From the NCBI GenBank assembly GCA_963743885.1, contig CAVURJ010000001.1, positions 204,949-268,948 on the forward strand: 64,000 nt of DNA. The letters run 5' to 3'. Source of the DNA: Candidatus Moraniibacteriota bacterium. GTDB taxonomy: Bacteria > Patescibacteriota > Minisyncoccia > Moranbacterales > UBA1568. Below the pieces are notes generated by a model. The model was not told the origin of the DNA. It did no database searches and saw only the letters and a program-made list of their open reading frames with translations. The position numbers and the translations under genes are program-made. Positions 248 to 34,995 of the stretch are shown piece after piece (within the stretch, counting starts at the first letter, position 1; every line of letters starts with the position of its first letter).

Positions 248-1120
248 TTACTTCTTCAGTTTCTTTGGCGGCTTTCTTTTTTCTAAGCCGAGGAAATTCT
301 TCTTGGTGCTGACGCGCTTGCTGGTTTTCGTTTCGATGTCTTTCCTCGTGCGGCCGGCTATGGCTCCGCCATCCTTGGCGTCTTTCTGTAATTTCGGGAA
401 ACCTTTTGAGTCCCGGTCTTGCGAGAGGCGCGTGGTGGCGGCTTCGCCGAGCATAGTGAGGATGAGCTCGATATCGTCCATGTGGTCGCGCAGATTCTCG
501 CGCTTCAGACCTTTGAATTTCTTGTATTCTTCGGCGGTCATATCGAATGTTCCGGCGAGGATATCGTTGGTGAGTATGGCATATTCGATGCCTTGCTTGG
601 CGCCGCGCTTCTGCCATTCGTTGGTCAGCGTCTCGCGGACTTCGATGCCGCGCATCCTTTTCTCGATCCAAGCTTCTGGATAGCCTTTGGCCCGATAGAT
701 TTCGCGGGCACGCTGCGCTGCCAGTTCCGGATTTTCTATTTCTTGCACTCGCTCATAGCCGACCTTGGCCAGCCAGCGCTTGAACGGCTCTGCCTTGGGC
801 GAGGGGATGGATTGAATAAGCCGGAACATTCCTTCTGTATTCCAGCAGTACATTTTTTGCTTACCTCCTAGGGTTTCTACTTCCAGCATAAGGGGTGGTA
901 CAAATTGTACCCCCCCTTGATCAACGAGTCTTGCAAGTTCAGCATCCCTCGTTTTAAGTCTTTTGAAGTATTGTGCTGGATCTTTCGAATCTGTGAGCGC
1001 TTCGATAACGTCGTTTACAACAAACCACCACTCGTTATTATGGAGCGCCTTGCGGATCTGTTTTCCTTCGAAAAGAGCGATTCTTGTGTTTTTCATAATT
1101 TCTTGTTTCTTAGTTGTCAT
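248..1120 (-). CDS. Bro-N / DinD-like (DNA-damage-inducible protein D family) protein
   Basis: N-terminus NEWWFVVNDVIEAL...KRLKTRD resembles a Bro-N domain. The C-terminal DAKDGGAIAGRTRKDIETKTSKRVSTKKNFL matches the DinD family tail. Confidence 0.55.
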   Translation of the reverse strand: MTTKKQEIMKNTRIALFEGKQIRKALHNNEWWFVVNDVIEALTDSKDPAQYFKRLKTRDAELARLVDQGGVQFVPPLMLEVETLGGKQKMYCWNTEGMFRLIQSIPSPKAEPFKRWLAKVGYERVQEIENPELAAQRAREIYRAKGYPEAWIEKRMRGIEVRETLTNEWQKRGAKQGIEYAILTNDILAGTFDMTAEEYKKFKGLKRENLRDHMDDIELILTMLGEAATTRLSQDRDSKGFPKLQKDAKDGGAIAGRTRKDIETKTSKRVSTKKNFLGLEKRKPPKKLKK

Positions 1121-1537: not shown

Positions 1538-3781
1538 ATGAAATTCTGGGAACAAGGCCTCAATCCTGAGCAGTTGCGCGCGGTCCTCCAAACGGAAGGA
1601 CCGGTGCTTATCCTGGCCGGTGCCGGATCTGGCAAGACCAAGACACTGACGCACCGTATCGCCTACCTCATCGAGGAGAAGCAGGTGTCGCCGCAGCATA
1701 TCCTTGCGGTCACCTTTACCAATAAGGCGGCGCAGGAGATGCGCGAGCGTATCGAGAAGCTCCTGTCGCAGAGCGATGCGGCCGAGTATGGCGCCGTGGC
1801 GCTGCCACAGCATATCGGGACATTCCACAATATCTGCTGCCGCATCCTCCGGAGGGAGATTGAGGTTTTGGGGTATGGCAAGAGCTTCAATATCGTCGAT
1901 AGCCAGGATCAGGAGTCACTCGTCAAGAAGTCGATGCGTGAGCTCGAGATCGATCCGGATCAGGTGAAGCCGCGTGCTATCCTCGATGCCATCTCGCGCG
2001 CTAAGAACGCCTTCAAGAGCGAAGAGCAGTTCATGCTCGAAGCCGGCAGCTACTTTGAGGAGATCATCGCCAAGGTCTACGCGGCGTACCAGAAGGCGCT
2101 TCGTGCGGGCAATAGCTTGGACTTCGATGACCTCATCATGCTCACGGTCCGGCTCTTCCAGGAGCATCCGGAGGTGCTCGCGCGCTACCAGGAGACCTTT
2201 CGCTACGTCATGGTCGACGAGTATCAGGACACCAACTACCCGCAGTACCTCCTGGTGACGCTCCTCGCCGGCAAACACAAGAATCTCTTCGTCATCGGCG
2301 ACGACTACCAGTCGATCTATGGCTGGCGCCAGGCGGACATCCGCAACATCCTTAACTTCGAGAAGGACTACCCGGAAGCGGCGGTCATCACGCTTGATCA
2401 GAACTATCGCTCGACGCAGATTATCCTCGATGCGGCACATGGTGTCATTGAGCGCAACAAGAACCAGCGACACAAGAAGCTCTGGACGGAGATGAAGGGC
2501 GGCGAGCCGATCGCGCTCGTACCGGCCGAAGACGAGGAAGCAGAGGCGCGCTTCGTGGCGGAGACGATAGCCCGCGAACGGAAAGCCGGCAAGGGCTACA
2601 GCGACTTCGCTGTGCTCTACCGCACCAACGCTCAGTCCCGCATGATCGAAGAGATGTTCCTCCGCCATTCAGTGGAGTACCGTATCGTGGGCGGACTGAA
2701 GTTCTATCAGCGCAAGGAAGTGAAGGACATGGTCGCCTATGTGCGGCTCCTCGAGAACCCGCGCGACATGCTCGCGCTCGAGCGCATCATCAATGAGCCC
2801 AAGCGGGGCCTGGGCGACGCGACACTCGCACGTTGGACCAGTTTTGCTCGGACGAATGACCTGGATTTCTTTGACGCTGCATACAAGATGACGCCTGAGA
2901 CGAGCGACCTGCGCGAGGGCAAGATCAAGGCGATCCGCGAGTTCGCGGACATCTTTCTCAAGCTCCGCCTGGAGATGGGGGAGTATCCTGATCTCAAGCT
3001 GCCCGAGCTGCTCGACAAGATCGGCCGCGCGAGCGGCTATGTCGCGAGTCTCGATGACGGCACGGCAGAGGGCGAAGCGCGAGAGGAAAACGTGCGCGAA
3101 TTGCTTACCGTTGCCAAAAAGCACGACGACCTTCCGCTTGCTGAGGCACTCCATCTTTTCCTCGAGGAAGTGGCGCTCTCATCCGATACGGACGAGATCA
3201 GCCGCAATACCGATGCGGTGCATGTCATGACACTCCACAGCGCCAAGGGCCTCGAGTTTCCAATTGTCTTCATCCTCGGTCTCGAAGAGGGTATCTTCCC
3301 GCATTCGCGCGCGCAGCTTTCTCCGGCCGAGCTCGAAGAAGAACGCCGCCTCATGTATGTCGGTTTGACCCGTGCCAAAGAGCGCGTCTATCTCCTCTTC
3401 ACTGAGAGCCGCACTATTTATGGTTCGACGCAGGTCAACCCGCCGTCGCGCTTTATCGCGGAGATACCAGATCATCTCGTTGACGAGCAGGACCGTGTGA
3501 GCTCCGGTATGATGGGTAAGAAATATTTCCAGCGGTCGTTCCAGCGCTATCCGTCCGCGCCGAAGAAGAAGCTCACCGCTCCGGTAGCGAAATCCGAAGG
3601 TGCCGAGCCGCAGGGCACGCCGATCCAGCCGGGCGAGGTCCGGCCGGGGGATATGGTAGAGCATCCGCAGTTCGGCTCGGGTCTCATCGTCTCGATCGCG
3701 GGCACGCTCGCGACCATCGCCTTCAAGCGTTCTGGCGTGAAGAAGATGATGCTTGGCGTCGCACCACTTACGAAAGTATAA
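1538..3781 (+). CDS. pcrA: ATP-dependent DNA helicase PcrA/UvrD (superfamily 1)
   Basis: Walker A LAGAGSGKTKTLTHRIAYLI, VMVDEYQDTNYPQY, and a UvrD C-terminal tail. Start is taken at MKFWEQGLNPEQLRAV by analogy with the PcrA N-terminus; the ORF is open from 1418. Confidence 0.9.
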   Translation: MKFWEQGLNPEQLRAVLQTEGPVLILAGAGSGKTKTLTHRIAYLIEEKQVSPQHILAVTFTNKAAQEMRERIEKLLSQSDAAEYGAVALPQHIGTFHNICCRILRREIEVLGYGKSFNIVDSQDQESLVKKSMRELEIDPDQVKPRAILDAISRAKNAFKSEEQFMLEAGSYFEEIIAKVYAAYQKALRAGNSLDFDDLIMLTVRLFQEHPEVLARYQETFRYVMVDEYQDTNYPQYLLVTLLAGKHKNLFVIGDDYQSIYGWRQADIRNILNFEKDYPEAAVITLDQNYRSTQIILDAAHGVIERNKNQRHKKLWTEMKGGEPIALVPAEDEEAEARFVAETIARERKAGKGYSDFAVLYRTNAQSRMIEEMFLRHSVEYRIVGGLKFYQRKEVKDMVAYVRLLENPRDMLALERIINEPKRGLGDATLARWTSFARTNDLDFFDAAYKMTPETSDLREGKIKAIREFADIFLKLRLEMGEYPDLKLPELLDKIGRASGYVASLDDGTAEGEAREENVRELLTVAKKHDDLPLAEALHLFLEEVALSSDTDEISRNTDAVHVMTLHSAKGLEFPIVFILGLEEGIFPHSRAQLSPAELEEERRLMYVGLTRAKERVYLLFTESRTIYGSTQVNPPSRFIAEIPDHLVDEQDRVSSGMMGKKYFQRSFQRYPSAPKKKLTAPVAKSEGAEPQGTPIQPGEVRPGDMVEHPQFGSGLIVSIAGTLATIAFKRSGVKKMMLGVAPLTKV

Positions 3782-3858
3782 TAATCCGAACAAGTCTTAA
3801 AAAAGAGCTTTAATTAGAGCCCTTTTTTCTTTTAAACGACAGGAGAATAAGTAAAGTA

Positions 3859-3935
3859 TAGGTATAATTCAAGTATAATTAGACTGGTATTGACATAATG
3901 AGTCAAAATTAGGTATAATTCAAGTATAATTATAC
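3859..3935 (+). promoter_or_regulatory. promoter region with two 22-bp direct repeats (ggtataattcaagtataatta), each carrying two TATAAT boxes, plus TTGACA at about 3889
   Basis: Direct repeats at 3859-3881 and 3910-3932, in the AT-rich DNA upstream of the Fic gene. Confidence 0.4.
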
Positions 3936-3938
3936 TTA

Positions 3939-4029
3939 TTACCAAACGAAGTGAGTGAAACGAAAGTTAACTTTCGTTTCCGAGCGCAGTGCGGGTAAAA
4001 TCGGTAAATAACCGTTATTTTATAAATCG
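3939..4029 (+). repeat. structured two-hairpin element, copy 1 of 3 (TTACCAA..GTGAGYGAAA-stem-TTTCCGAGCGNAGYGC..GTAAAA-stem2); candidate small RNA or MITE
   Basis: Shared primary sequence with 32301-32460 and 46577-46665. Stem 1 is gaaacgaaag/ctttcgtttc and stem 2 is cggt/accg; both stems show compensatory changes across the copies. Confidence 0.55.
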
Positions 4030-4030
4030 T

Positions 4031-5386
4031 ATGCTTTTCAACTTAAAAAAGCCATCCGTGGCGCAAATGGATAATAGTCAAATGCTGGATCTTCTTTCTG
4101 AGAGGAGTTCGGAAATTTTTGATTTTGTAAAAAAGGTTTCTAACGCTGAGTATTTATATTGGGATAATTTTCGCCATAAGGAACCATCGCCAAAAAACAT
4201 TTCTAAAGAATCACTGTGGATGCTTACGAAATTCATCAGAAAGGCACAATCTATCAAAACACCTATTAAGGATAAGGGCGGCAGTGTTTTTACTTGGTCG
4301 AAGCTGCAGTATTTCGAGCAGTTTTTCCATGAGCTTGATATGAATACCGGCGGAGGATTATTTGTTGAAAGCTCGGAAGTAAATAAAGCCAATAAGCAGA
4401 AGCTTATTTCCAGGGGGATAATGGAAGAGGCTATCGCCTCTTCCCAATTGGAGGGAGCTGCTACAAGCCGGCAAGCAGCCAAGAAAATGCTACGTGAGGG
4501 AAGAAAGCCGAAAAATCGATCCGAACAGATGATCGTGAATTCGTATCTTTCCATGAAATCGATTGAGGAAAATTATAAGGATAGAAAAATGACGGTAGAT
4601 TTGCTATTGGAGATGCATAGCATGATTACGTCGGATACTCTTGATTTAGAAGGAGAAAGGCCAAGGTTAAGAGGAAAAAAAGATCCAATCGTTGTGTCGG
4701 ATGATGCGACTGGTATCGTATATCACGAAGGACCGAATATGGCCTTTGTAAAAAATGAGCTTGAACGATTGGTTGAATTCGCGAATGATGAATTGGACAG
4801 CGGAGAGTTTATTCATCCAGTCATCAAGGCTATCATGCTTCACTTTTGGATGGGATATCTCCACCCGTTTACTGATGGCAACGGGCGGTTGGCTCGCCTT
4901 TTGTTTTATTGGTATCTTATGAAAAAAGGATACTGGGCTTTTGCGTATTTGCCGATTTCTAAGGTAATCAAGCGTTCACCAAAGCAATATATTATGGCGT
5001 ATGTGTACAGCGAACAGGATGATAACGATCTCGCATATTTCATAAATTACAATATCCAGAAAATTAAGCTTGCTATGAGAGAGTTTTTGGAATATAGAGA
5101 AAAACAATCAACAATGAATGTCCAGATGCGCAAGATATATGGTGTTCGATATCATTTTAATGATAGGCAGATACATTTGCTCCAGTATCTTTATGGGGAT
5201 GCTGACGGAGAAACGACGTTGTTTTCCCATATGAATGTGAACCAGGTATCAAAGATGACCGCGAGCAATGATTTGAAGAACCTTGTGAAAAAAGGATTTC
5301 TTATCCGTTCTAAGCGAGGAAGAAACGTGTTTTATTCTGGAACAGAGAAGATCGAAGAATTGTTCGAAACAAGAAAGAATGGATGA
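4031..5386 (+). CDS. Fic family protein (putative AMPylase/toxin)
   Basis: Canonical Fic motif HPFTDGNGRLARLL. The gene sits in AT-rich DNA. Start is taken at the ATG after the structured element; the ORF is open from 3989. Confidence 0.85.
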   Translation: MLFNLKKPSVAQMDNSQMLDLLSERSSEIFDFVKKVSNAEYLYWDNFRHKEPSPKNISKESLWMLTKFIRKAQSIKTPIKDKGGSVFTWSKLQYFEQFFHELDMNTGGGLFVESSEVNKANKQKLISRGIMEEAIASSQLEGAATSRQAAKKMLREGRKPKNRSEQMIVNSYLSMKSIEENYKDRKMTVDLLLEMHSMITSDTLDLEGERPRLRGKKDPIVVSDDATGIVYHEGPNMAFVKNELERLVEFANDELDSGEFIHPVIKAIMLHFWMGYLHPFTDGNGRLARLLFYWYLMKKGYWAFAYLPISKVIKRSPKQYIMAYVYSEQDDNDLAYFINYNIQKIKLAMREFLEYREKQSTMNVQMRKIYGVRYHFNDRQIHLLQYLYGDADGETTLFSHMNVNQVSKMTASNDLKNLVKKGFLIRSKRGRNVFYSGTEKIEELFETRKNG

Positions 5387-5418
5387 TGCTTGGCGTCGCA
5401 CCACTTCGGAAGGTCTAG
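5382..5418 (+). repeat. relic duplicate of the last 12 codons of pcrA (MMLGVAPLRKV*), a direct repeat of 3745-3781
   Basis: gatgatgcttggcgtcgcaccactt is identical at 3745-3769 and 5382-5405. The downstream codons are near-identical and carry their own TAG stop. Confidence 0.7.
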
Positions 5419-5472
5419 GAGAGAAAAAGAAAAGGCGGCTTCGGGTGAAGCCGCCTGGAGGTTTTGCAGATG

Positions 5473-6786
5473 TTACTGCGTGTCGATGCCGATCTCTCTC
5501 GGGTCGGTGATGAGGGTATTGCCCCATGCGATGCCTTTGAATCGGGGCAGGCCTTGTGGGAATGTATCGCGCATACGCATGATGAGAGAGCTGACGCGTT
5601 TTCCGGCAAGCAGTTTTTCGAGCTTACCCTCGTTTGCTGTGGCCGGGTAGTCCTTGATACGCATAGGTTTCCCGTATTCCATGTCCACGATCCGGATATG
5701 GGTCGCTTGGTGCACATGCGAACTGACGAAGGCGACTCCGTTGATGCGAGTGAGCAAATAAGCGACGCGGTGGGCTTTTTTCGGCGGTGGAGCCATCCGG
5801 AGGTAGCAGCCGTATTCGGGGAAGTTGTGTGCTTCAAGTAGCAAGCCGATCTTTTCGACGGCTATCTGCTTGAGAACGGCGCCCATCTGGATGTTGCAGG
5901 GCGTGAGCACTTTCGCTTCTACGATGGCGGCGCTTCCGATCGGATATATCTTCAGGTCTTCCATGGCGATGACACCTTGCATGTCCTCGACTGTTTTTTT
6001 GACCGCCGACTTCAGATCATCGCCGAGACTCTTCTGGATGAGCACGGAGTATCCTTTTTCGCCGAGCTCGTAGGCTACTCGGAGGATGAGGATGCCGGCC
6101 GCCAATCCGAACGGGTATTCGATCCAGGGAGCCTGGAAAAAGTACTCGCCGGATATCCCGATGAGAGCAGCGCTCTCGATGATGCCGTCGCTTCGCGTCT
6201 CTTGGCCGTCGGCTACGATGGATGGCTTTTGATGCTTGTGGCCGACCGCCATTTGGATCCTTGAGGCGACGAACGAGAGGGCGATGCTTGTCAGCACGAT
6301 GCATGCCAATACCGGGTACCAGCCGTTGAAAATAGCCGGGTCGGTATGCGTTTCGGGGACGAGGACGGAAGGTAGTGCTGCGAAGGCAGCTTTGGGGATG
6401 GAGTCCGCGAAGAATGTCTGTGCGATCCCTATGCCCGAACTACAGAAGATGGAAAGCCCGATTCCTCCGAGCAGGAACCCGATCAGGAGGACGAAGATGC
6501 TTTCAAGATTGCGCCGTCCGAACGGGTAGTCGCTGTTGCCGGTATCGCGGGCCAGTGATACGACGAGTATCACGAGGCTGGCTTCGAAGATATCCGAAGT
6601 ATTGTGGATGCCGTCGGCCCCTACGACGAGGGAACCGGCGAGCAGTCCGCCGACACCGCCTTTCAGGACGACCTTGAAGATGTACATCGTGATGACCGCC
6701 AGCATTACGCCGTGTGGCGTGAAGAGCGGCGGGATCCTTTTTTCGAGCCAGCTGAGCCAGCCCGAAGCGTATGGATGCGTTGACAT
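5473..6786 (-). CDS. cation diffusion facilitator (CDF) family metal efflux transporter with an extra ~130-aa C-terminal domain
   Basis: TM region with LVVGADGIHNTSD and HKHQ..DG motifs, plus a CDF cytoplasmic domain (GVIAMEDLKIY...LEAHNF). The extra C-terminal domain is of unknown type. Confidence 0.65.
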   Translation of the reverse strand: MSTHPYASGWLSWLEKRIPPLFTPHGVMLAVITMYIFKVVLKGGVGGLLAGSLVVGADGIHNTSDIFEASLVILVVSLARDTGNSDYPFGRRNLESIFVLLIGFLLGGIGLSIFCSSGIGIAQTFFADSIPKAAFAALPSVLVPETHTDPAIFNGWYPVLACIVLTSIALSFVASRIQMAVGHKHQKPSIVADGQETRSDGIIESAALIGISGEYFFQAPWIEYPFGLAAGILILRVAYELGEKGYSVLIQKSLGDDLKSAVKKTVEDMQGVIAMEDLKIYPIGSAAIVEAKVLTPCNIQMGAVLKQIAVEKIGLLLEAHNFPEYGCYLRMAPPPKKAHRVAYLLTRINGVAFVSSHVHQATHIRIVDMEYGKPMRIKDYPATANEGKLEKLLAGKRVSSLIMRMRDTFPQGLPRFKGIAWGNTLITDPREIGIDTQ

Positions 6787-17897: not shown

Positions 17898-19052
17898 ATG
17901 GAAGTAGTGTACGCGAAAGAAAAGGCCCCGGAGGGGTATACGAAGTCGCTGTTCTTGGCTGGGCCGACCCCTCGCGATGCCTGGGTATCGTCTTGGAGGC
18001 CGGAAGCACTGGCAATCCTCGAAGCGAGCGGCTATGACGGCGTCGTCTTCGTTCCTGAAGCACGCGATGGCAAGTGGGCGAAGGGATACGAGGATCAGGT
18101 GGAATGGGAAGAGAAGCATCTCAACATGGCGGACTGCATTGTTTTCTGGGTTCCCCGGGAGATGAACACCATGCCGGCCCTGACCACCAACACCGAATGG
18201 GGCGTATGGCAGGATAGCGGCAAAGTCGTTTTCGGCGCCCCGGAGCATGCCGAGAAGGTCCGTTACCAGATCTATTACGCCAACCAGTTCAAGGTGTCCA
18301 TCAGTAGCAGCATCGAGGATACCATTCGGAGCGCGTTGTCGTTCATCGGCGAAGGCGTTTTGCGGTCTGGTGGCGAAAGAGATGTCCCTCTTTTCATCTG
18401 GAAGACGCCTCATTTCCAAGCGTGGTATTCCGCGCAGAAGAATGCGGGCAACAGGCTGGATGGTGCGAGGGTAGTCTGGACGTTCCGTGTAGGACCCAAC
18501 AGGAATTTCGTTTTCTTCTGGGCTCTCCACGTTGACGTCTTCATCGCCAGTGAGAACCGCAACAAGACCAACGAAGTCGTCCTTTCCAGGCCGGATATAG
18601 CGACTGTTGTGATGTATCGGCGAGCGGTGACGCTCGAAGAGACGACGGTCGTCTTGATCCGGGAATTCCGCAGTCCGGCGGCGACTGTCGACGGCTATGT
18701 CTGGGAAATACCAGGCGGGTCGTCATTCAAGCCGAAGGGCAATCCTCTGGAGTTGGCGGCGGCGGAATGCGAGGAGGAGACGGGACTGAGCGTGGATCCC
18801 ACACGGGTTTCTTTCCATAACGTACGCCAGCTCGTGGCGACGCTCTCTGCCCACAAGGCGCACGTATTTTCTGTCGAGATCACCTCGGAGGAAGTCGCTG
18901 CGCTTGAGGAGCAGAAAGGTATTCCGCACGGGGTACTGGAGGACACGGAAAGGACGTATGTGGAAGTCACGACCCTCGGCGAAATCCTCAAGCAGAACAA
19001 GGTCGACTGGTCCATGCTCGGGATGATCCTCTCCGTCATCAACCAGCGATAG
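17898..19052 (+). CDS. fusion of a nucleoside 2-deoxyribosyltransferase/DNPH1-like N-glycosidase domain and a Nudix hydrolase
   Basis: N-terminal flavodoxin-like region LFLAGP...YDGVVFVPE...EWEEKHLNMADCIVFWV...TEWGVWQDSGKVVFGAPE. C-terminal Nudix box GGSSFKPKGNPLELAAAECEEETGL. RBS aagggagg is upstream. Confidence 0.6.
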   Translation: MEVVYAKEKAPEGYTKSLFLAGPTPRDAWVSSWRPEALAILEASGYDGVVFVPEARDGKWAKGYEDQVEWEEKHLNMADCIVFWVPREMNTMPALTTNTEWGVWQDSGKVVFGAPEHAEKVRYQIYYANQFKVSISSSIEDTIRSALSFIGEGVLRSGGERDVPLFIWKTPHFQAWYSAQKNAGNRLDGARVVWTFRVGPNRNFVFFWALHVDVFIASENRNKTNEVVLSRPDIATVVMYRRAVTLEETTVVLIREFRSPAATVDGYVWEIPGGSSFKPKGNPLELAAAECEEETGLSVDPTRVSFHNVRQLVATLSAHKAHVFSVEITSEEVAALEEQKGIPHGVLEDTERTYVEVTTLGEILKQNKVDWSMLGMILSVINQR

Positions 19053-19077
19053 TTATCTGGCGAACTAGCCAGACGAA

Positions 19078-19116
19078 CCCCATAGGCTGCAAAGCTTATG
19101 GGGGATTTTTTTATGA
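19078..19116 (+). terminator. rho-independent terminator
   Basis: The sequence ccccataggctgcaaagcttatggggg is followed by attttttt. Confidence 0.55.
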
Positions 19117-19240
19117 AAATATTAGCGTACCTGGATCATGTGCGTTTTTTGTTTGGGAGGAATATACTTGGGGTAGAAGTAGAAAATGTGGTCACCCCCC
19201 ATCCATTAGGGGAAACTAGCTCTAAGGAATAAAGAAAGAC

Positions 19241-19927
19241 ATGGGAGTAAATCTAAACGAAAATAAACTCCGAAAAGCTGAAGTAGAGGCTTTCAAAAAT
19301 GGCATCAGGCTACATTTTGATGCCATTAAGCTTTTTGAGAATAAATCGTATCCCAGCGCCTATGCCCTATCGGTTTTATCTTTGGAGGAATTCGGAAAAC
19401 AACGTCTAATTGATGAAATACTCTTTCGTTACATTGAGCATAAGGGAGAATTTGAAAACGATAAACAGTTTACTGATTTTTGTAAGGATTTTGAAAACGG
19501 GATGTTAAGTCATTCTTTGAAACAGGGATTTGCTGTATCAGACGATTTTCCGTTCATGAGGGGACGTAACAGAATGCAGAGAGGATTTTTATATAAAATG
19601 TTTAATCACAAGAATGGAAGGAAATTGATTGATGGTTGGAAAATGAGATCAATTTATGTCGGGTTTGAACACAATAGCTTAAAAGGGAGAATACAAACAC
19701 CGCTAAGCTTTATTAAGAGAAAAAAAGCACAAGATCAAATAACCGCCATAAATGATTATTTAGTAAATTTTATAATTTACCTTAGACAAGGCAGATGGAC
19801 GCTCGATAATGAAAATCTTATGAGGTTTTATAACACCAATCTTTTGAATAAACTCGTTGATATTTGGAAGAACAGACATGAGGACACTAGAAGCAGGCTA
19901 GATACCTTTTTGAGTTCTCGGAAGTAA
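19241..19927 (+). CDS. AbiV-like abortive-infection protein (tentative)
   Basis: AIKLFENKSYPSAYALSVLSLEEFGKQ is reminiscent of the AbiV-family N-terminus. First gene of a low-GC island. Confidence 0.3.
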   Translation: MGVNLNENKLRKAEVEAFKNGIRLHFDAIKLFENKSYPSAYALSVLSLEEFGKQRLIDEILFRYIEHKGEFENDKQFTDFCKDFENGMLSHSLKQGFAVSDDFPFMRGRNRMQRGFLYKMFNHKNGRKLIDGWKMRSIYVGFEHNSLKGRIQTPLSFIKRKKAQDQITAINDYLVNFIIYLRQGRWTLDNENLMRFYNTNLLNKLVDIWKNRHEDTRSRLDTFLSSRK

Positions 19928-20050
19928 TAATTGGTTAATGATTTTTTTGCTAATTTTTTGTTTGAATTGATTGCGTGATATAGTAAAGGCAGTTGACAAA
20001 GGTAAGAGATTTTTATTATAGGTAGCTAATTAAGGCCATAAAATATTTTT

Positions 20051-20563
20051 ATGATAAATGTAAATAAAATAAACGATATATTAGGATTTTTTTCGGACAA
20101 TGTTTCGGATCTAACTGTTACTAAGATAATGAAGTTATTTTATTATGTTGATTTTGTTTCTTTTGCAGAAAAAAATACTTCTGTTACAAACGATGTTTAT
20201 TATAAGCTTCCTTACGGTCCAATTCCCTCTTTTATTAAAAACGAGATCAACACTCTGACTTTCAAAACCATGCTTGGAGCAGAGGCTGGAGATTTGCAAA
20301 TTTCAAAAAATTTCGGAGTGGAACAGAAAAAGATAGGCAAGTATGATGCTTATGTTGTTAAAAATAATGGAAAAAAGAGTTCTCTTGAGAACTTATCTGG
20401 TTATGAGGTAGAACTCATAAAAAGGATATTAAATAAGTTTGGAAAGAAAACGGCAAAGGAACTAACTGATCGTACTCACAAAGAGAAACCATATCTTTTG
20501 ACAAATGAAAATTCAATTATTGATTATAAACTTGCTAGTTTTCTTAATACCAGTTCTATTTAA
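20051..20563 (+). CDS. Panacea-domain (DUF4065, SocA-like) protein, a putative antitoxin
   Basis: TKIMKLFYYVDFVSFAEKNTSVTNDVYYKLPYGPIPSFI matches the Panacea/DUF4065 pattern. Confidence 0.55.
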   Translation: MINVNKINDILGFFSDNVSDLTVTKIMKLFYYVDFVSFAEKNTSVTNDVYYKLPYGPIPSFIKNEINTLTFKTMLGAEAGDLQISKNFGVEQKKIGKYDAYVVKNNGKKSSLENLSGYEVELIKRILNKFGKKTAKELTDRTHKEKPYLLTNENSIIDYKLASFLNTSSI

Positions 20564-20568
20564 CAAGT

Positions 20569-21117
20569 ATGGGAGACTACGGGTTTGGCGATGTTTATGA
20601 TTGCAGAAATGTTCCAGAAGTGGAACATTTTATTGTTATATTAGGATTTCAGGAAATTAAGGGGAAGAAGATTATATTTTATGAAAAAGTAACTTCACGA
20701 GTTTATAAAGCCTTCAAGAAACTCAGTGATTTTTTTGAGGGTAACTGTAATGGGCAATGCAAGAAGTTCAAGCATAATTTCAAAGATAAGACCCCCATTT
20801 TCCATTACGGGAAATTATGCTTTACGTTATTTTTAGATAAGGACGAAAACTATCTCAATGAAGATAGCATGGTTGTGATAAAGGGTGATCCAGAGAAGAC
20901 GGACGAAACTATTATGGAGCAATGGATTAAGGCCGGACTAGCTAAATCGAAAACGAGAATTTCAAATGTAGACATTTATAAGTTAATGGCTATATTAAAT
21001 AACTCGGATAATTTAAGTAGTCCAGTAATCCATCATATCCGTCTCGCCTTTAGTGGGGTTGATAAAATGATAAAGATGCAAAACCTTCAGAAGGCTAGTA
21101 AGAAAAAGAAGAAATAG
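20569..21117 (+). CDS. hypothetical protein, candidate toxin partner of the Panacea protein
   Basis: Starts 6 bp downstream of the Panacea gene on the same strand. No recognisable domain. Lys-rich tail. Confidence 0.4.
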   Translation: MGDYGFGDVYDCRNVPEVEHFIVILGFQEIKGKKIIFYEKVTSRVYKAFKKLSDFFEGNCNGQCKKFKHNFKDKTPIFHYGKLCFTLFLDKDENYLNEDSMVVIKGDPEKTDETIMEQWIKAGLAKSKTRISNVDIYKLMAILNNSDNLSSPVIHHIRLAFSGVDKMIKMQNLQKASKKKKK

Positions 21118-21158
21118 TGGTTTGTAAAAAGAAGAAAAGGGAGAAGAAAAGGGGTCAA

Positions 21159-21240
21159 GTACCTTTTTAAGAAAGAAATGACACACCCGAGGCGCGGGAA
21201 GAATCTTTCATGACGGATCGGTCCGGCCCGCAGCATCGCA
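21159..21240 (+). repeat. island repeat copy A (~100 bp) with an embedded SD plus mini-ORF MTHPRRGKNLS* (21178-21213)
   Basis: About 85% identical to 22326-22432 and 23258-23367. Followed by hairpin terminators at 21286-21320. Confidence 0.6.
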
Positions 21241-21491
21241 AGACTAGAGAATGGGTTAAGTAGAACAATTTCCCCACTACAAAAAGTAACACGAAATGAC
21301 GGCCGTCGTTTCGTGTAACATTTTTGTTTTGATTTACCCTGTGAAATCCGACTTTGTCGGTCCGCCTACTGGCGGAATTTCACAGGGTGAATATTGACCG
21401 GTTTTCATGGCTGGATGTATACTTATATATGTAAGTCATGTAAACATCTTGGTTACCTGAGAAGTTGGTAACGGGATGAGCAAAAACAATT

Positions 21492-22299
21492 ATGAAAAAG
21501 ATAGAAGTGCAGGGGATTGAGATAGCCATAGTCTCTCAAAAAGAGCATGACTATATCTCTTTGGCTGATATGCTGAGAGCGAAAGATGGGGATTTCTTCA
21601 TATCTGATTGGCTGAGAAATAGGAATACGGTCGAATTTTTAGGAATCTGGGAACGGATTAATAACCCGGATTTTAATTATGGCGAATTCGCCATAATTAA
21701 AAGCCAAGCAGGGCTCAATAGCTATAAAATCAGTGTTAAGGAATGGGTGAAGAAAACGAGGGCTAGGATTGAAATCAACAGCCGGACGATATGGCGGAAC
21801 TTTCGCTCATAAGGATATTGCCTTCGAATTTGGTATGTGGATATCGCCGGAATTCAAGTTGTACCTTATTAAGGAGTTCCAGCGACTGAAAGTTGAGGAA
21901 AATGAAAGACTGATACTAGGTTGGGACGTGAAGCGGATGCTGACGAAGATGAACTATAAGATTCATACGGATGCGATAAACGAGAACATTGTCATTCCAC
22001 AGAAACTGTCGCAGAAGGATGCGAATATGACGTATGCGAATGAGGCGGACGTTTTGAATATGGCGCTTTTTGGCATGACAGCGAAAGCCTGGAGAGATAA
22101 GAATAGGAAAAAGGAAGGGAACATGCGGGACTATGCTGATGTGACGCAGCTCGTGTGTCTCGCCAATCTTGAGGGGTTGAATGCGGAGTTCGTCAGGATG
22201 GGAATGACGCAAAAAGAACGATTGCTCAGGTTGAATGAGGCAGCGATAGCGCAGATGAAATCGCTTTCGGGAAACAAGAATATCCGGAAGTTTCTATAA
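21492..22299 (+). pseudogene. KilA-N domain protein interrupted by a frameshift (ORFs 21492-21812 and 21769-22299)
   Basis: N-part ISLADMLRAKDGDFFISDWLRNRNTVEFL and C-part GGTFAHKDIAFEFGMWISPEFKLYLIKEFQRL together form one KilA-N domain. The two frames overlap at 21769-21812. Confidence 0.55.
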
Positions 22300-22325
22300 G
22301 AATTGAGAAGATAAGGAATCGAACG

Positions 22326-22432
22326 CCTTTTCAAGGAAGAAATGATGCATCCGAGGCGTGGGAAGGATCTTCTGTGACGAATCGATCCGGTCCGCAGCAT
22401 CGCGGGAGCAGGGGAATCTGAATATCACCCAG
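22326..22432 (+). repeat. island repeat copy B with mini-ORF MMHPRRGKDLL* (22342-22377), followed by a terminator
   Basis: See copy A. Downstream aaaacagccctgtctagagctgtttttt is a terminator. Then comes the palindrome gttaactattgactatatagttaac. Confidence 0.6.
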
Positions 22433-22553
22433 TAAAACAGCCCTGTCTAGAGCTGTTTTTTGTATCGAGAAAGAAAGTCTTGTTAACTGCTGTAGTGTAA
22501 GTATTCTATTGTTAACTATTGACTATATAGTTAACATATGTTAACATAAGGAT

Positions 22554-22808
22554 ATGGAAAAACAATTCTATACAACCAAAGAGATTTCGGAGTTGCTTGG
22601 CGTTAGCCGAGTGACTGTTTTCAAACAGATCAAATCTGGAAAGATTAAGGCTCAGAAAGTCGGGCGTAACTATATCATCCTCAAAGAGGACATGCCGGAA
22701 ATGCTGAACAAATCGTTGAAAGAATTTGATAAATCGAATATTCAGGATGCAGTGAAAAAAGTGGTAGACGAGTACAGCGAGACCCTTAAGCTTCTTGGGA
22801 AGGAATGA
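22554..22808 (+). CDS. HTH (excisionase/MerR-type) DNA-binding protein, putative Phd-like antitoxin
   Basis: YTTKEISELLGVSRVTVFKQIKSGKIKAQKVGRNYII HTH. Its stop overlaps the start of the Doc gene. Confidence 0.6.
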   Translation: MEKQFYTTKEISELLGVSRVTVFKQIKSGKIKAQKVGRNYIILKEDMPEMLNKSLKEFDKSNIQDAVKKVVDEYSETLKLLGKE

Positions 22809-23269
22809 GAATAAAGCAGATCTCAATCGTAGAGGTGGAGTATGTGGCGCATCGTCTTGCGCAGGAGACGATGAAGTGGAGCGAGCCCATACCTGATTTC
22901 AGCACTCGTTATCCGAGAGTGCTTGAGAGCTGTCTCGCAGCTCCTTTTCAGACATTCAGTCGGAAAGTTTTGTATAAAGGTCTTCATGGAAAAGCCGCCA
23001 TGTTGTTTTATCTGATGGTGAAGAACCATCCTTTTGAGAATGGAAATAAGAGGATTGCGATGACAACACTTCTTTATTTCCTGTATAAGAACGGGAAATG
23101 GATCAAAGCGGATGAAATGGAGTTTTATAATTTCGCGAGATGGGTGGCTGAGAGCAGCCCGAAGTTCAAGGATGAGACTGTTGCGGCTGTTCGGAAATTC
23201 GTTACGACTAATATGATAGACGTCGCTACTCAAGCATTAGAAAAGAAAGAGGATCGAGTACCTTTTTAA
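22805..23269 (+). CDS. doc: Doc (death-on-curing) family toxin (Fic fold)
   Basis: Doc variant motif HPFENGNKRIAMTTLLYFLYKNG. Translationally coupled to the upstream HTH gene. Confidence 0.8.
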   Translation: MRIKQISIVEVEYVAHRLAQETMKWSEPIPDFSTRYPRVLESCLAAPFQTFSRKVLYKGLHGKAAMLFYLMVKNHPFENGNKRIAMTTLLYFLYKNGKWIKADEMEFYNFARWVAESSPKFKDETVAAVRKFVTTNMIDVATQALEKKEDRVPF

Positions 23270-23367
23270 GGAAGAAAAGATGCATCCGAGGCGCGGGAAG
23301 AATCTTCCATGATGGATCGGCCCAGTCCGCAGTATCGCGGGAGCAGGAGAATCTGAATATCACCCAG
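23258..23367 (+). repeat. island repeat copy C with mini-ORF MHPRRGKNLP* (23280-23312)
   Basis: The repeat begins inside the last codons of doc (RVPF*), which means it supplies the doc stop codon. Confidence 0.6.
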
Positions 23368-23469
23368 CAAAACAGCCTTCATTTGAGGATTGTTTTTTGT
23401 TCCCTGCAATGGATGTTCTGATTAGGTGCTTAAAAATGGCTTGATATAAGGACATTGTGCATATACTGG

Positions 23470-23579
23470 GAAAATATGTAAAAAGTAGTGAATATTGTTA
23501 TATTTATGAGTAAATTCACTAAATATTGACAAAAAGTAGTGAATATACTACAATTAACGCATACTATTCACTAAAAAAT
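23470..23579 (+). promoter_or_regulatory. promoter (TTGACA 23526-23531, TACAAT 23549-23554) flanked by AGTAGTGAATAT / ATTCACTAAA inverted and direct repeats
   Basis: aaaaagtagtgaatat occurs twice, and attcactaaa occurs twice in inverted orientation to it. This looks like an operator architecture upstream of the Fic gene. Confidence 0.45.
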
Positions 23580-24461
23580 ATGGCAATCACTCAACCGATT
23601 AAGAATCGTATCCAAGCGTTGAAGAAGGAGTTTGATGCCTTGAAAAAAGGAAGGGAATCGCTTTTGGTGCTGCTTGATGAAGCCGAGATTCCGGAAAGCG
23701 TCTATAATTCCAACGCTATTGAGAATTCGACGCTTACGCTCAAGGAGACGGAGAAGATCCTACTTGATGTATCGGTGTCGCGCGACGTATCGGTGCGGGA
23801 AGTTTTTGAGACGAAGAATCTCGCTCGCGTCATCAACTATATCCGCACGAAATCCCAAGGAAAAGAGATCGATAGGGAAATGGTCCTGCTGTTGCACCAG
23901 ATGCTCATCGGGGGCATCAAAGATGAAATCGCGGGACGCTTCCGGACAAAAGGGGAGTATGTCCGGGTAGGAACATATATTGCTCCGGCACCGGAGCATG
24001 TAGAGCTGATGATCGCTTCAATCTTTTCTGGATACGAAAGCGAGCATGATTCGTATTTTCTCGATAAGATGGCAAAGTTCCATCTGGACTTTGAGAATAT
24101 CCATCCATTCTGCGATGGCAACGGCCGCATCGGTCGGGTGCTTGCCTGTTACCAATTGCTTCGATTGGGATTTCCTTTGATTATCATTCGGGACAAGGAA
24201 AAGGAAATGTACTACCAGGCATTTGCTGATTATCGCGATGGAAAGAATACGAAGACGATGGAAAAGGTGTTTTCGCTGGCACTTACGGAATCACTGTATA
24301 AACGCATTACGTATTTGAAGGGAGAAAAAATCATGACACTCGCTGACTATGTGAAGAAACACAAAAAATCAGCCGCTGCCATGTCGAATGCTGCTCGTCG
24401 TCAGAACATACCAGCTTTCCGCGAAAAGGGCGTTTGGAAGATCGGGGAGAAGTTTAGATGA
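23580..24461 (+). CDS. Fic family protein
   Basis: HPFCDGNGRIGRVLACYQL. Start is taken at MAITQPIKN; the TTG at 23526 in the ORF track is the -35 box. Confidence 0.85.
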   Translation: MAITQPIKNRIQALKKEFDALKKGRESLLVLLDEAEIPESVYNSNAIENSTLTLKETEKILLDVSVSRDVSVREVFETKNLARVINYIRTKSQGKEIDREMVLLLHQMLIGGIKDEIAGRFRTKGEYVRVGTYIAPAPEHVELMIASIFSGYESEHDSYFLDKMAKFHLDFENIHPFCDGNGRIGRVLACYQLLRLGFPLIIIRDKEKEMYYQAFADYRDGKNTKTMEKVFSLALTESLYKRITYLKGEKIMTLADYVKKHKKSAAAMSNAARRQNIPAFREKGVWKIGEKFR

Positions 24462-24483
24462 AATTAAGAGTCGGAGCGTCCAG

Positions 24484-24520
24484 CAAAACAGTCCTCATCC
24501 GGGGGGGGGCTGTTTTTTTG
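24484..24520 (+). terminator. rho-independent terminator at the right edge of the low-GC island
   Basis: The sequence aaaacagtcctcatccgggggggggctgttttttt. Confidence 0.55.
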
Positions 24521-24607
24521 TCTGAAGCGTTTGTCATTGACCGCGGTGGGCATCTGATGTAGGCTGTTCTTTCGAAGTTCTTTGATTACGATAGTGGAGG
24601 ATGAGTC

Positions 24608-25276
24608 ATGAAAGCAGCGATTCTGACCGGTTTTGAGGTCTTTGGGAAGTACGCGGTCAATCCGACGGAGATCCTGGCGAGGTCTCTGGCAGGGGAGGTC
24701 GTCTCCGGGCACCTCATCCGTTCGATGGTTTTTCCTACGACGGTGCTTGTGCCGCATGGAGCGAGAGATGCTGGAACCCTGATCGTCGACGAAGCTTTTC
24801 TGGTCGACGCTTCGGTGATCATTTCTCTGGGCATAGACTCTGGAGCCAGGGGCGTGCGTATCGAAAGGACTTGCATCAATTGGGTGGAAAACGCGAAGTA
24901 CTGCACCCAATACGAGAATCAGAAGCCTCTCTCCGACGCGCATGATCCCAAGGAGAGGCTGCCGATGCCACTTCAATCATGGGATTTCGCAGGGTTGTCC
25001 GAGAGGTTGGCCCTAGCCGGCATTCCTTTGGAGACATCGGAAGATGCGGGCAGCTACTGTTGCAACGCGCTGATGTACAGGACACGCCGGTCCATGAAGG
25101 AGTGCTCGCTCGAGATACCGTTCATCTTCGTCCACGTTCCTTGCACCGAGGAAGCGGTGGCGGATATGCCCGATTTCGATCGCGCAAGCAAGGTTCTGTT
25201 CCACCAAGAGGATCTGGCAACGGTAGTGGAGAGCCTTCTCGAGTCGTACCTTCCGAATCCGCGAGTCGAGGACTGA
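24608..25276 (+). CDS. pcp: pyrrolidone-carboxylate (pyroglutamyl) peptidase I family
   Basis: MKAAILTGFEVFGKYAVNPTE N-terminus and a catalytic Cys in DAGSYCCNALMY. Confidence 0.7.
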   Translation: MKAAILTGFEVFGKYAVNPTEILARSLAGEVVSGHLIRSMVFPTTVLVPHGARDAGTLIVDEAFLVDASVIISLGIDSGARGVRIERTCINWVENAKYCTQYENQKPLSDAHDPKERLPMPLQSWDFAGLSERLALAGIPLETSEDAGSYCCNALMYRTRRSMKECSLEIPFIFVHVPCTEEAVADMPDFDRASKVLFHQEDLATVVESLLESYLPNPRVED

Positions 25277-25362
25277 AAGAATCAAGCAGCAGAGCCGCAG
25301 GGTATTACCCAGCGGCCTTTTTCTTTTAAAACAGCCCTTATTTGATTGATTTTTTCGGGTAC

Positions 25363-25401
25363 TTGACAGGAAACTATATAGTGTATATACTACACTTAGT
25401 A
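25363..25401 (+). promoter_or_regulatory. promoter TTGACA-17-TATACT with overlapping operator atagtgtatatactacacttagta
   Basis: Same motif as upstream of pncA-like and of pnuC. Confidence 0.5.
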
Positions 25402-31291: not shown

Positions 31292-32275
31292 TTACTCCTT
31301 ATCCTCTTGTTTTCGTTTCCCGTGGAAGCTCTTGTGGATCTCCTTGAGTCGTTCGTTGGTGATGTGGGTGTAGATCTGGGTGGTGGTGATGGAGGCGTGG
31401 CCGAGCATGGACTGGACCGATCGGATATCCGCACCGTTGACGAGGAGGTCGGTCGCGAAGGAATGGCGGAGTGTGTGCGGGTGCACGTCCTTTACAATGC
31501 CGGCTTTCTTGGCGTAGTGCTTCACGATGCGGGCGATGCTCCGCGGCGTGAGGCGGAGTGATTCGCGCTTGGCGTTCTTTTTGTTGACCAGTCCTTTCTT
31601 GCCGTGCGAGACGAAGAGCGCTGGATCGACATCCTGGCGCTGGTTGAGGTAGGCGGAGAGGGCGGCCTTGGCGGACGCCGAGATGAAGACGATGCGGAGT
31701 TTGGAGCCTTTGCCGCGGACGCTGAACTCCTCCTTGTCGAGGTTGAGGTGGGCACGGTCGAGCCCGGTCAGCTCGGAGACGCGGAGGCCAGCAGAGAAGA
31801 GAAGCTCGAGGATGGCCCGGTCACGGAGCGCTTTGACGGTATTGCCTTCTGTTGCGGTCATGAGGCGCTCGACCTCGTCGTATTCGAGGAAGTCTACCTG
31901 TCGATCCGGCATCTTGCCGACCTCGACCTTCTCGGCGGCTAGGGTCTTCACATCCTGCTTGGCCAGGTACTTGAGGAAGGTGCGGATGACGATGGCGTGG
32001 TAGGCCTGAGTGTTCTTTTTGAGGGTAGTGCCAAAGCGGGTGGGCTTGCGGTTGAGGTGGATGCGGTATTCCCGGACCCGGTCGGCCGTAATATCAGACG
32101 GTGTGGTGAGTGGGCCCCAGTCAAAAAAGAATCGGAGCGCCTGGCCGTAGCTCGCGAGCGTCCGCGGGGAGCGGGAAAGCTCGATCTCGAGGTGCTCGAG
32201 GAAGCGCTTGGCGTATTCTTCAAGCTCGTTCTTCGGTTTTTCGAATGGGGGCATAGCGGCTACATTATGAGACAT
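31292..32275 (-). CDS. tyrosine site-specific recombinase XerC/XerD family
   Basis: C-terminus HTLRHSFATDLLVNGADIRSVQSMLGHASITTTQIYTH with a catalytic Tyr. Confidence 0.85.
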   Translation of the reverse strand: MSHNVAAMPPFEKPKNELEEYAKRFLEHLEIELSRSPRTLASYGQALRFFFDWGPLTTPSDITADRVREYRIHLNRKPTRFGTTLKKNTQAYHAIVIRTFLKYLAKQDVKTLAAEKVEVGKMPDRQVDFLEYDEVERLMTATEGNTVKALRDRAILELLFSAGLRVSELTGLDRAHLNLDKEEFSVRGKGSKLRIVFISASAKAALSAYLNQRQDVDPALFVSHGKKGLVNKKNAKRESLRLTPRSIARIVKHYAKKAGIVKDVHPHTLRHSFATDLLVNGADIRSVQSMLGHASITTTQIYTHITNERLKEIHKSFHGKRKQEDKE

Positions 32276-33895: not shown

Positions 33896-33937
33896 CTGGT
33901 AGCTTGTTAGCTTCCCTAGCTTCGTTAGCATGAAAGG

Positions 33938-33963
33938 ACAGGTTCGGAAGAGCCTGTTTTTTG
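33938..33963 (+). terminator. terminator hairpin acaggttcggaagagcctgttttttg (copy 1 of 2)
   Basis: An identical 26-mer is present at 34939-34964. Confidence 0.6.
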
Positions 33964-34014
33964 CTTGTAAAAAATGAAAAAATGTGCTATATTGGCAGTA
34001 TATCCAAGAAAAAT

Positions 34015-34284
34015 ATGGCTCAAATAAGCGCTCTCAATCAGTTTATCCAGTCTCGTCCGTACCTCGTATGGTATGTGAAGGATGTGGAGAATATTTCGGA
34101 GGATTCCGTTGTTGAACACGTGCTCAATTATGGCGATTGGAAGGATTTCCAAGAGTTGATTCGTATCATCGGCATCGAACGCGTCGCGCGGGACTTCCGG
34201 CAGCGGGCCGATGTGCCGCGGACGAATTATCGTCCAGAGATCAAAAATCTCTTCCAGCTGTATTTTGATCGCTATGCTGCATAA
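34015..34284 (+). CDS. hypothetical small protein, candidate cognate antitoxin of the AbiEii-like toxin
   Basis: Its stop overlaps the start of the nucleotidyltransferase gene. Promoter-like TTGCTT...TGCTATATT lies at 33961-33996. No recognisable domain. Confidence 0.35.
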   Translation: MAQISALNQFIQSRPYLVWYVKDVENISEDSVVEHVLNYGDWKDFQELIRIIGIERVARDFRQRADVPRTNYRPEIKNLFQLYFDRYAA

Positions 34285-34891: not shown

Positions 34892-34938
34892 CCATGAGGA
34901 GAAGATGTAAGAGGAAAGACGCAAGAGACAAGAGAAGA

Positions 34939-34964
34939 ACAGGTTCGGAAGAGCCTGTTTTTTG
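34939..34964 (+). terminator. terminator hairpin, identical copy 2 of acaggttcggaagagcctgttttttg
   Basis: Direct repeat of 33938-33963. The pair flanks the AbiE-like two-gene cassette. Confidence 0.6.
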
Positions 34965-34995
34965 ATTTATATAAGCCAAAATATAATAAATACCC

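Follow-up and report, generated by a model that had tools for sequence, protein, structure and literature searches.

Here we describe an insertion at the 3' end of pcrA, the presumably essential gene for the UvrD/PcrA helicase, in a Candidatus Moraniibacteriota bacterium (contig CAVURJ010000001.1, positions 204,949 to 268,948; this stretch of 64,000 nt, taken at its full length, is referred to as the window, and positions are counted from its first letter). Sequence comparison with relatives indicates that a self-contained 1.6-kb unit, which carries a single gene for a Fic family protein, is inserted inside the last 37 nt of pcrA and that the terminus of the gene is regenerated in the process: pcrA now ends with an imported tail encoding TKV*, and the original RKV* tail, together with its terminator, lies directly after the Fic gene as a relic. 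We assign a probability of roughly 0.55 to the explanation that units of this kind spread by host homologous recombination on short portable arms, with no dedicated recombinase. The first-pass annotation of this region spoke of a cassette that integrated; this wording describes the outcome, and the mechanism is what we infer from the comparisons below.

The pcrA gene (positions 1538-3781, forward strand; 747 aa, the last four codons, TKV*, supplied by the insert) matches the Pfam profiles UvrD-helicase, UvrD_C and PcrA_UvrD_tudor, the last of which extends to the final residue. The protein is 92% identical to the Moranbacteria PcrA proteins P0121 and P0122, and the named homologues at 71-92% identity come from Moranbacteria or Moraniibacteriota. 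The duplication of the gene end reported in the first-pass annotation (3745-3781 and 5382-5418) stands: the 25-nt core GATGATGCTTGGCGTCGCACCACTT is present without mismatch at 3745-3769 and 5382-5406 and at no other site in the window, and tolerating three mismatches adds no further site; shuffled sequences yield zero matches under the same tolerance, so that none is expected by chance. A repeat search delimits a 36-nt direct repeat (3745-3780 and 5382-5417, 89% identity, spacing 1637); read through to the stop codons, the repeat covers 37 nt, of which 32/37 are identical and 25 form the exact stretch. All five mismatches between the copies fall in the last 12 positions and none in the core (P = 0.0018 for this clustering). 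The left copy (3745-3781, forward strand) consists of the core and the tail ACGAAAGTATAA (TKV*), and it is here that the pcrA open reading frame (ORF) terminates as ...KKMMLGVAPLTKV*. The right copy (5382-5418, forward strand) consists of the core followed by CGGAAGGTCTAG and translates as MMLGVAPLRKV*.

The segment bracketed by the repeat was described as AT-rich and about 1.6 kb long, and indeed measures 1637 bp with 38% GC, compared with 57-59% in the surroundings. Along the sequence, the GC fraction drops from 0.58-0.63 in pcrA to 0.31-0.46 between the copies and is back at about 0.55 just past the second copy. The GC content at third codon positions (GC3) follows the same division, with 0.77 in pcrA (overall GC 0.59) and 0.43 in the Fic gene (0.38 for the insert). 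Because the 25-nt repeat is exact and unique within the window, and the break in composition coincides with it, the arrangement is best read as an insertion with a regenerated terminus.

An empty-site counterpart was located through the gene to the right of the insert, which encodes a cation-diffusion-facilitator (CDF) protein (5473-6786, reverse strand; Pfam Cation_efflux) and is the conserved neighbour that defines the site. The encoded protein is 63% identical to the CDF protein P0244 of locus L134, where the gene order is G5 protein, ksgA, UbiA, pcrA, and then the convergent CDF gene, orf259 and a CoaE-like gene; the order CDF, orf259, CoaE-like gene on the downstream side is common to the window and L134. 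At L134, pcrA ends with ...GATGATGCTCGGGGTCGCCCCACTGCGGAAAGTTTAA (also given as ...AAAAAGATGATGCTCGGGGTCGCCCCACTGCGGAAAGTTTAA), which translates as KKMMLGVAPLRKV, and the final peptide of the protein, ...MMLGVAPLRKV, is the same as that of the right copy in the window, in agreement with the original description of this copy as a relic. A single hairpin follows pcrA at L134, the stop codon of the convergent CDF gene is 55 nt away, and no Fic gene is present. We take L134 as the empty-site counterpart because this layout equals the right copy, terminator and CDF gene of the window.

Both copies in the window align to the single pcrA tail at L134 and to that at L013, another relative (PcrA 92% identity). 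Over the 36 nt past the core, the right copy matches the native pcrA end of L013 at 26/36 positions and the left copy at 10/36. Taken with the layout of L134, this match on the right flank argues that the right copy is the original terminus, since displaced, and that the left tail and everything up to the Fic gene are imported; the alignment to relatives that lack the insert thus favors the integration with a regenerated terminus that had been proposed. A hairpin at 5433-5456 (10-bp stem with 7 G-C pairs), which occupies the equivalent position at the empty sites of L134 and L013, would be the bidirectional terminator that originally served pcrA and the convergent CDF gene and now stands 3' of Fic.

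The left tail ACGAAAGTATAA matches the natural pcrA tail of L012 at 11/12 nt, and the natural endings of this PcrA clade include TKV, RKV, KKV and others. Given this match to the L012 allele, the working terminus came with the insert, with the original displaced as a relic. Five relatives depart from the window core at 3-6 of the 25 positions, so the identity of the two copies over the core stems from the event itself and not from general conservation. A perfect 25-mer would be unexpected in two tails of independent origin, as would differences at 5/12 positions in a fresh duplication. On these comparisons, the locus is a junction of two different pcrA alleles joined at the 25-nt core. A cassette-free donor could hardly have swapped the TKV* tail alone, as it would have had no homology to the right of that tail; hence the tail and the terminator-like hairpin behind it would have been imported together with Fic, and in the donor genome the unit would already have been located behind pcrA.

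The remainder of pcrA is a mosaic as well. It is 94-95% identical to the L013 gene over the first ~850 nt and 71-85% identical thereafter; in this latter part the L012 gene is at least as close, and consecutive sites agree with L012 rather than L013. This pattern indicates that the gene recombines between lineages; neither the recombinant lineage nor a tie to the import of Fic is assignable from the mosaic. A truncated PcrA protein (P0133, ending ...GVKK) was considered as evidence of another insertion at this position and ruled out, because the truncation results from a 1-nt frameshift in an A-run: in pcrA of L122 (4580-4622), the A-run that immediately precedes the core (GTCAAAAAATGATG) has a 1-nt deletion, either a frameshift or a sequencing error, which truncates the called protein at ...GVKK. 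What follows pcrA on its downstream side varies within this clade and includes a NAPRTase gene at L013, a methyltransferase unit and a recombinase gene at L010 and L012, and sigma-factor genes at L122. On the upstream side, UbiA and ksgA precede pcrA at L010, L013 and L134, and neither gene is found anywhere in the window, where the segment upstream of pcrA (1-1537, GC 0.40-0.46) contains a gene with a Bro-N domain (248-1120, reverse strand).

The methyltransferase unit (L012 4655-6755, the same as L010 8712-10812) is 2038 bp long, has a promoter of its own, encodes a 609-aa methyltransferase and resides in a genome with a PcrA 92% identical to that of the window. It is flanked by a 63-nt repeat (87% identity) that corresponds to the 3' end of a tyrosine recombinase gene, probably xer. 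At its left end, a degenerate sequence that resembles the pcrA tail, AAGATGATGTTTGGTGTTGTACTGTTGAGGTAA (KMMFGVVLLR*), could be the scar of an earlier stay in the tail of pcrA.

The insert in the window contains a single ORF, the Fic gene (4031-5386, forward strand; 451 aa; Pfam PF02661), preceded in order by the substitute tail, a hairpin, a promoter and a 5' untranslated region (UTR). Alignment with 39 homologues (40 sequences) fixed the start codon. The TGA stop codon (5384-5386) lies inside the right repeat copy: most of the homologues end with ...ELF, whereas the window protein is six residues longer and takes its stop codon from the repeat. The active-site motif HPFTDGNGRLAR, which fits HxFx(D/E)GNGRxxR, is invariant in the 40 sequences, as is the inhibitory motif SSQLEG (residues 137-142), which fits (S/T)xxxE(G/N) and is located N-terminal to the core in the same chain. 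In a sequence search of the PDB, the best match was the Coxiella Fic protein 8cil, with SoFic among the matches; the best NCBIfam match was the SoFic family; and weak signals of an ArsR-type helix-turn-helix were detected at the C-terminus. The AlphaFold model (pLDDT 72.6) retrieved exclusively Fic structures, with SoFic ranked first, and no resemblance of the protein to recombinases or nucleases was detected by sequence or predicted fold. From these profiles and the model, the protein is predicted to be a self-inhibited class II, SoFic-like putative AMP-transferase with a C-terminal winged helix. The identification as Fic and the position of the stop codon in the second copy therefore agree with the first-pass annotation, but the designation as a toxin is not supported: a toxin of a two-gene module is ruled out by the in-chain inhibitory motif and the lack of a partner ORF, and a class I toxin-antitoxin pair of the FicT/VbhT type by the same motif and by the lack of a separate antitoxin ORF, or any second credible ORF, in 3782-4030.

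With the SoFic-type class II proteins (PDB 3EQX and 3ZCN; Coxiella Fic 8CIL), the window protein shares the Fic core motif, the in-chain inhibitory helix and the C-terminal winged helix. It differs from them in its low identity (~17%), in an extra N-terminal region of ~117 residues, and in belonging to a large family (more than 6,000 proteins) that is 62-79% identical to the window copy in many Patescibacteria, reaches other phyla, and travels with an operator-rich promoter. Among the viral contigs of IMG/VR, relatives were detected at no more than 30% identity over substantial stretches, which gives no evidence for a phage vehicle.

The non-coding part of the insert begins, past the substitute tail, with an AT-rich, terminator-like hairpin (3799-3833, forward strand) that folds as (((((((.(((((....))))).))))))) and continues into the U-run UUUUCUUUU. 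The signal is weak (z = -1.0), and a consensus terminator scan missed the hairpin because it has few G-C pairs; this insert-borne element would now terminate the transcription of pcrA. The promoter/operator region that follows (3846-3941, forward strand) was described as repeat-rich, and it consists of two ~40-nt modules (3846-3885 and 3897-3936) that contain TAGGTATAATTCAAGTATAATTA, with a sigma-70 promoter spanning 3890-3919 that matches the consensus at 12/12 positions (TTGACA at 3890-3895, an 18-nt spacer, TATAAT at 3914-3919) and a 16-nt palindrome, AAGTATAATTATACTT, immediately 3' of the -10 element. The structured RNA-like element of the first-pass annotation can be specified as a perfect palindrome of 12+12 nt, GAAACGAAAGTT/AACTTTCGTTTC (3957-3980, forward strand), in the 5' UTR of Fic, which folds with z = -2.94. 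This palindrome is peculiar to the window copy and missing from related leaders, and a search of Rfam with the insert gave no match.

The promoter/operator module is the sole non-coding part of the insert that is conserved at other Fic loci. At nearly every locus, 3-8 copies of an 8-mer are found within 220 nt upstream of the Fic gene, and the sequence of this 8-mer depends on the Fic lineage: it is TAGGTATA in the subgroup of the window and ATGTATA, AGGTGTAA, CATGTTAA or ATGTAAAG in more distant lineages. This covariation suggests that the 8-mer is recognized by the winged helix of Fic itself and changed along with it. Fic probably represses its own promoter through binding of the winged helix to the repeats of the TAGGTATAAT type, which would be its operators. 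Autorepression is the simplest reading because Fic alone travels with the motif and has a winged helix.

The 36-bp duplication that the first-pass annotation proposed to look for around other cargo did not turn up: beyond its two sites in the window, the core had no counterpart in the three collections searched (genome, metagenome and viral), with no exact match among the genome or metagenome contigs and no match to a degenerate pattern of the core plus the TKV tail among the viral contigs. Exact look-ups of the window Fic and PcrA proteins, with the start codons chosen here, matched no record; the neighboring CDF protein matched one, on a 652-kb contig.

What recurs is the pattern, with other sequences as repeats. 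Fic loci were collected from species-representative genomes (80 loci) and metagenomes (15 loci), and several were added through exact look-ups. For each locus, the 1200 nt upstream of Fic were aligned with a segment that starts 45 nt ahead of the stop codon and extends 450 nt beyond it, and the score cut-off was set at 33.7, the 99th percentile of mismatched locus pairs; 77 non-redundant Fic loci were compared with 92 neighboring ORFs of 300-650 aa from the same loci as controls. Local direct repeats flank Fic in 18 of the 77 loci, compared with 6 of the 92 neighboring ORFs (Fisher p = 0.003), and at scores above 50 the counts are 16/77 and 3/92, respectively (p = 0.0004).

Almost every locus has a different sequence duplicated, without a common motif, and in many cases this is the end of a conserved gene. 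The duplicated sequences include 3' ends of genes, namely those of a convergent gene (L097, 80/86 identical positions), tyrS (L044, 58/63), a pilB-type ATPase gene (L102, 31/37) and an upstream gene (L033, 51/60), as well as the end of an upstream gene together with the start of its terminator (L056, 21/21) and the terminator downstream of a Mur-ligase gene (L096, 54/56). At L105 (56/56), the anticodon stem of tRNA-Leu(CAA) and everything 3' of it are duplicated. Other repeats correspond to the first codons of hsdR (L051, 45/46; L057, 66/70) and to a segment inside a comM-like gene (L089, 149/195). In all gene-end cases, the target gene is intact and the relic is on the far side. The bracketed units, from ~20 independent repeat-flanked loci, are mostly 1.4-1.7 kb long and consist of the leader and Fic, and the right repeat copy frequently begins within ~20 nt of the Fic stop codon. 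Beyond the operator module, neither terminal inverted repeats in the window insert nor conserved unit ends among the Fic loci were found, and in four loci (L024, L053, L060 and L100) the operator module itself is the repeated sequence.

pcrA is not the usual home of this Fic family, as a UvrD-like gene is nearby in only 2 of the 80 genome loci and is not adjacent in either. In another Moranbacterium (L110-L119), a Fic gene without repeats has the G5 gene on one side and ksgA on the other and is located 3 kb upstream of pcrA, and in two related genomes repeat-less Fic genes are located after polA (L001) and between tsaE and polA (L120). No Fic contigs shorter than 2.6 kb with overlapping ends, the form expected of circles, were detected. 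At one Moraniibacteriota locus (L030, 4065-6590), a terminator-containing module of ~70 to 200 nt is present in three copies (at ~4065, 4818 and 6382), which separate a 139-aa ORF, Fic and a 138-aa ORF in a layout that resembles a cassette array.

No recombinase, transposase or integrase was detected within the 1637-bp insert by searches against Pfam and the PDB or by predicted fold. The only tyrosine recombinase in the window is encoded at 31292-32275, 26 kb from the insert, and is probably Xer, because it is 78% identical to a recombinase at a comparable chromosomal position in a relative (L012). A jackhmmer search seeded with this protein gave matches in the fetched flanks of 2 of 108 Fic-bearing loci; serine recombinases and transposases were not systematically searched. 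At L056, a tyrosine recombinase is encoded 774 nt past the unit. ORFs of 190-200 aa beside Fic at L020, L023 and L030 were considered as small serine recombinases and rejected: those identified by Pfam belong to YdjM, GNAT or PsbP-like families, and those of L030 had no match.

If the units spread by host homologous recombination, as we favor, each would carry a short stretch of the conserved gene end that it previously adjoined, and the recombination machinery of the host, probably following DNA uptake, would pair this stretch with its counterpart in a new genome. One route would be a single crossover (Campbell-type insertion) of a looped-out circle that has one copy of the repeat; the other would be a double crossover of a linear piece that pairs both of its flanking copies with one target. 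Either route would produce the arrangement gene end, unit, gene end, with the target gene intact and the duplication recreated. Conserved gene ends and tRNAs would make the best portable arms, in agreement with the list of targets, and a crossover between diverged alleles would need an uninterrupted match such as the 25-mer. Competence and pilus genes are reportedly prevalent in Patescibacteria (PMC12455944). For natural transformation, recombination with homology at one end and an illegitimate junction at the opposite end has been described (PMC3240628).

Several points weigh against spread by host recombination. The homologous-arm model covers spread between homologous targets and does not cover the first duplication at a new target, and an arm of 25 nt is near the lower limit for RecA-dependent recombination. 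At about 77% of the Fic loci, among them L001, L111 and L120, no flanking repeat was detected, and the closest homologue of the window Fic is just 79% identical and occurs in a different genomic context. Searches of the genome, metagenome and viral collections yielded no donor, no second filled site, no circular form and no closer empty site. Furthermore, the sharp edge of the unit near the Fic stop codon, seen at many loci, would be easier to produce by a defined cutting or joining step than by random recombination, and the tRNA duplication at L105 is a classic integrase footprint. The latter two observations are among those that would be accounted for by a tyrosine or serine recombinase that acts in trans, with the Fic unit as a non-autonomous satellite comparable to a cis-mobilizable element, a copy of the pcrA tail in its attachment site, and the 25-nt core as the attachment core. 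An identical core combined with a diverged tail that completes the gene is what integrases targeting gene 3' ends produce, and the tyrosine recombinase close to the L056 unit also speaks for this scenario. We nevertheless consider it doubtful: the insert encodes no such enzyme, the lone candidate in 64 kb is probably Xer, the targets differ nearly everywhere and lack a common motif, the unit ends are not conserved, and recombinases were found near only two of the 108 Fic-bearing loci searched. The leader motifs, moreover, change from one Fic lineage to another, as would be expected if they are bound by Fic itself and not by a shared integrase.

An origin as the remnant of a larger integrative element that occupied the tail of pcrA and lost its own integrase and everything but the terminal Fic would be consistent with the variability of the region downstream of pcrA at L013, L010, L012 and L122, and deletion remnants flanked by attachment sites are known. 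This origin is unlikely, however, since the ~20 repeat-flanked loci again hold the leader and Fic only, a content that random deletions would not be expected to repeat, and since the unit is compact and functionally complete, bringing a terminator for pcrA and borrowing the original one for Fic. Alternatively, staggered breaks ~37 nt apart in the pcrA tail could have been filled around a captured fragment, giving a true long target-site duplication with copies that diverged later. The perfect or near-perfect repeats of many other loci, such as L105, L056, L051 and L096, are compatible with this, and the class of insertions known from the literature is itself described as target duplication. 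In the window, by contrast, the five mismatches are all confined to the last 12 nt, where they alter a residue and the stop codon. The relic keeps the empty-site state, whereas the working copy deviates from it and matches another natural allele, and a cassette-free donor could presumably not have converted that tail alone. A target-site duplication thus has a small probability as well. Chance similarity or an assembly artefact is very improbable, given that zero matches are expected, that the repeat is in frame and encodes the conserved PcrA tail, that the composition break coincides with it, and that copies which differ from each other are not explained by a collapse or a chimera.

Insertion with long target duplication was reportedly described for restriction-modification units by Nobusato et al. 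in 2000, and since then has been a purely descriptive category that was hitherto limited to restriction-modification systems. The units involved lack a mobility gene, and most of them come from species with natural competence (Furuta et al. 2010, PMC2853133). The Fic unit in the window is similar in that it is small and of the selfish type, lacks mobility genes and has flanking direct repeats that span tens of bases, in that both repeats can be aligned to one copy at the empty site and in many cases extend over the end of an adjacent gene, and in that the lineage is probably competent for DNA uptake. With respect to the features by which this category is defined, the window has a collinear empty site (L134) and an insert of 1637 bp, well below 20 kb, without mobility genes; for the repeat, the category asks for more than 30 bp, and that of the window measures 37 nt overall (32/37), of which 25 nt are exact. 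The differences are that the cargo is Fic, which is not among the listed member types and is not a restriction-modification system, that the copies are a mosaic of two alleles and not a plain duplication, and that one cargo family repeats the pattern at different targets in several phyla. Because the cargo is a Fic enzyme, cutting of DNA by the cargo cannot be assumed.

Substitution of a gene end by an integrating element is well known from phage 21 and e14 at icd in Escherichia coli and from islands that target tRNA or tmRNA genes, all of which depend on integrases. Like these elements, the Fic unit carries a diverged copy of the last codons, leaves the gene intact, places the original end at the far junction and has an identical core; unlike them, it encodes no integrase, excisionase or other element gene and is only 1.6 kb long with one cargo gene. 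Campbell-type insertion-duplication and homology-facilitated illegitimate recombination are alike in that host recombination and a short anchor suffice and the anchor ends up duplicated, but these are laboratory or single-event processes, and the arm in the window is merely 25-37 nt long. We know of no natural, recurrent gene unit that has been described with its own portable arm. An integron gene cassette was considered and rejected because the unit has its own 12/12 promoter, no imperfect palindrome after Fic and no adjacent integrase; the lack of an attC-like palindrome follows from the position of the stop codon within the repeat. An insertion sequence or transposon was likewise rejected, given that there is no transposase, that terminal inverted repeats are lacking and that the left ends are not conserved among the units.

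The movement of single genes of the defense or addiction type without a transposase or integrase is poorly understood, and the locus described here bears on this question. To the known cases it adds Fic as cargo, an anatomy at base level that includes an empty site and the 25-nt core at which two recognizable alleles meet, statistical evidence for recurrence within one gene family at conserved gene ends in organisms thought to rely on DNA uptake, and a mechanism that is directly testable because the unit and its arms are short and defined. Two aspects appear to be new with respect to the literature searched: the recurrence for one gene family and the junction of two alleles in place of a plain duplication. 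The locus also illustrates a mechanism by which a gene such as pcrA tolerates an insertion in its coding end. As a tentative extension, the promoter and Fic together might be a minimal recombinase-less mobile element of a new type that moves across Patescibacteria and other phyla on a portable gene-end (or tRNA) arm, so that every insertion would regenerate the target and leave a long duplication. Fic itself may promote a step of the process; a topoisomerase or a recombination protein could, for instance, be what it modifies. For restriction-modification units, the DNA breakage that they cause has been proposed to drive insertion, and promotion by Fic would be the analogue.

Other repeat-associated genes were found elsewhere in the window. 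A hairpin, AAG[G/A]ACAGGTTCGGAAGAGCCTGTTTTTTG, is duplicated at 33934 and 34935 with a spacing of 1001 bp, and between the copies (region 33934-34984) lie a 107-aa ORF and, downstream of it, a gene for an AbiEii nucleotidyltransferase toxin (Pfam; 34211-34891), in a layout like that of the Fic unit. An AT-rich island at 19000-25400 (GC 0.31-0.44) contains genes of the defense or addiction type, encoding AbiV (19241-19927), a SocA/Panacea antitoxin (20051-20563) and a KilA-N protein (21769-22299); a 157-nt module with a terminator-like end is present three times (at 21141, 22305 and 23240) between successive small genes, and the island looks like the result of repeated insertions at one spot. 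In the region 48762-50976, three copies of the 25-nt sequence GTCAATTATGTGATATGTCTGGGAA (at 48762, 49459 and 50952) bracket a gene for a PaaX-like regulator (48763-49377, reverse strand) and a DUF4116 gene (49723-50826). Finally, two 300-nt copies with 87% identity lie 512 bp apart at 61269-62080.

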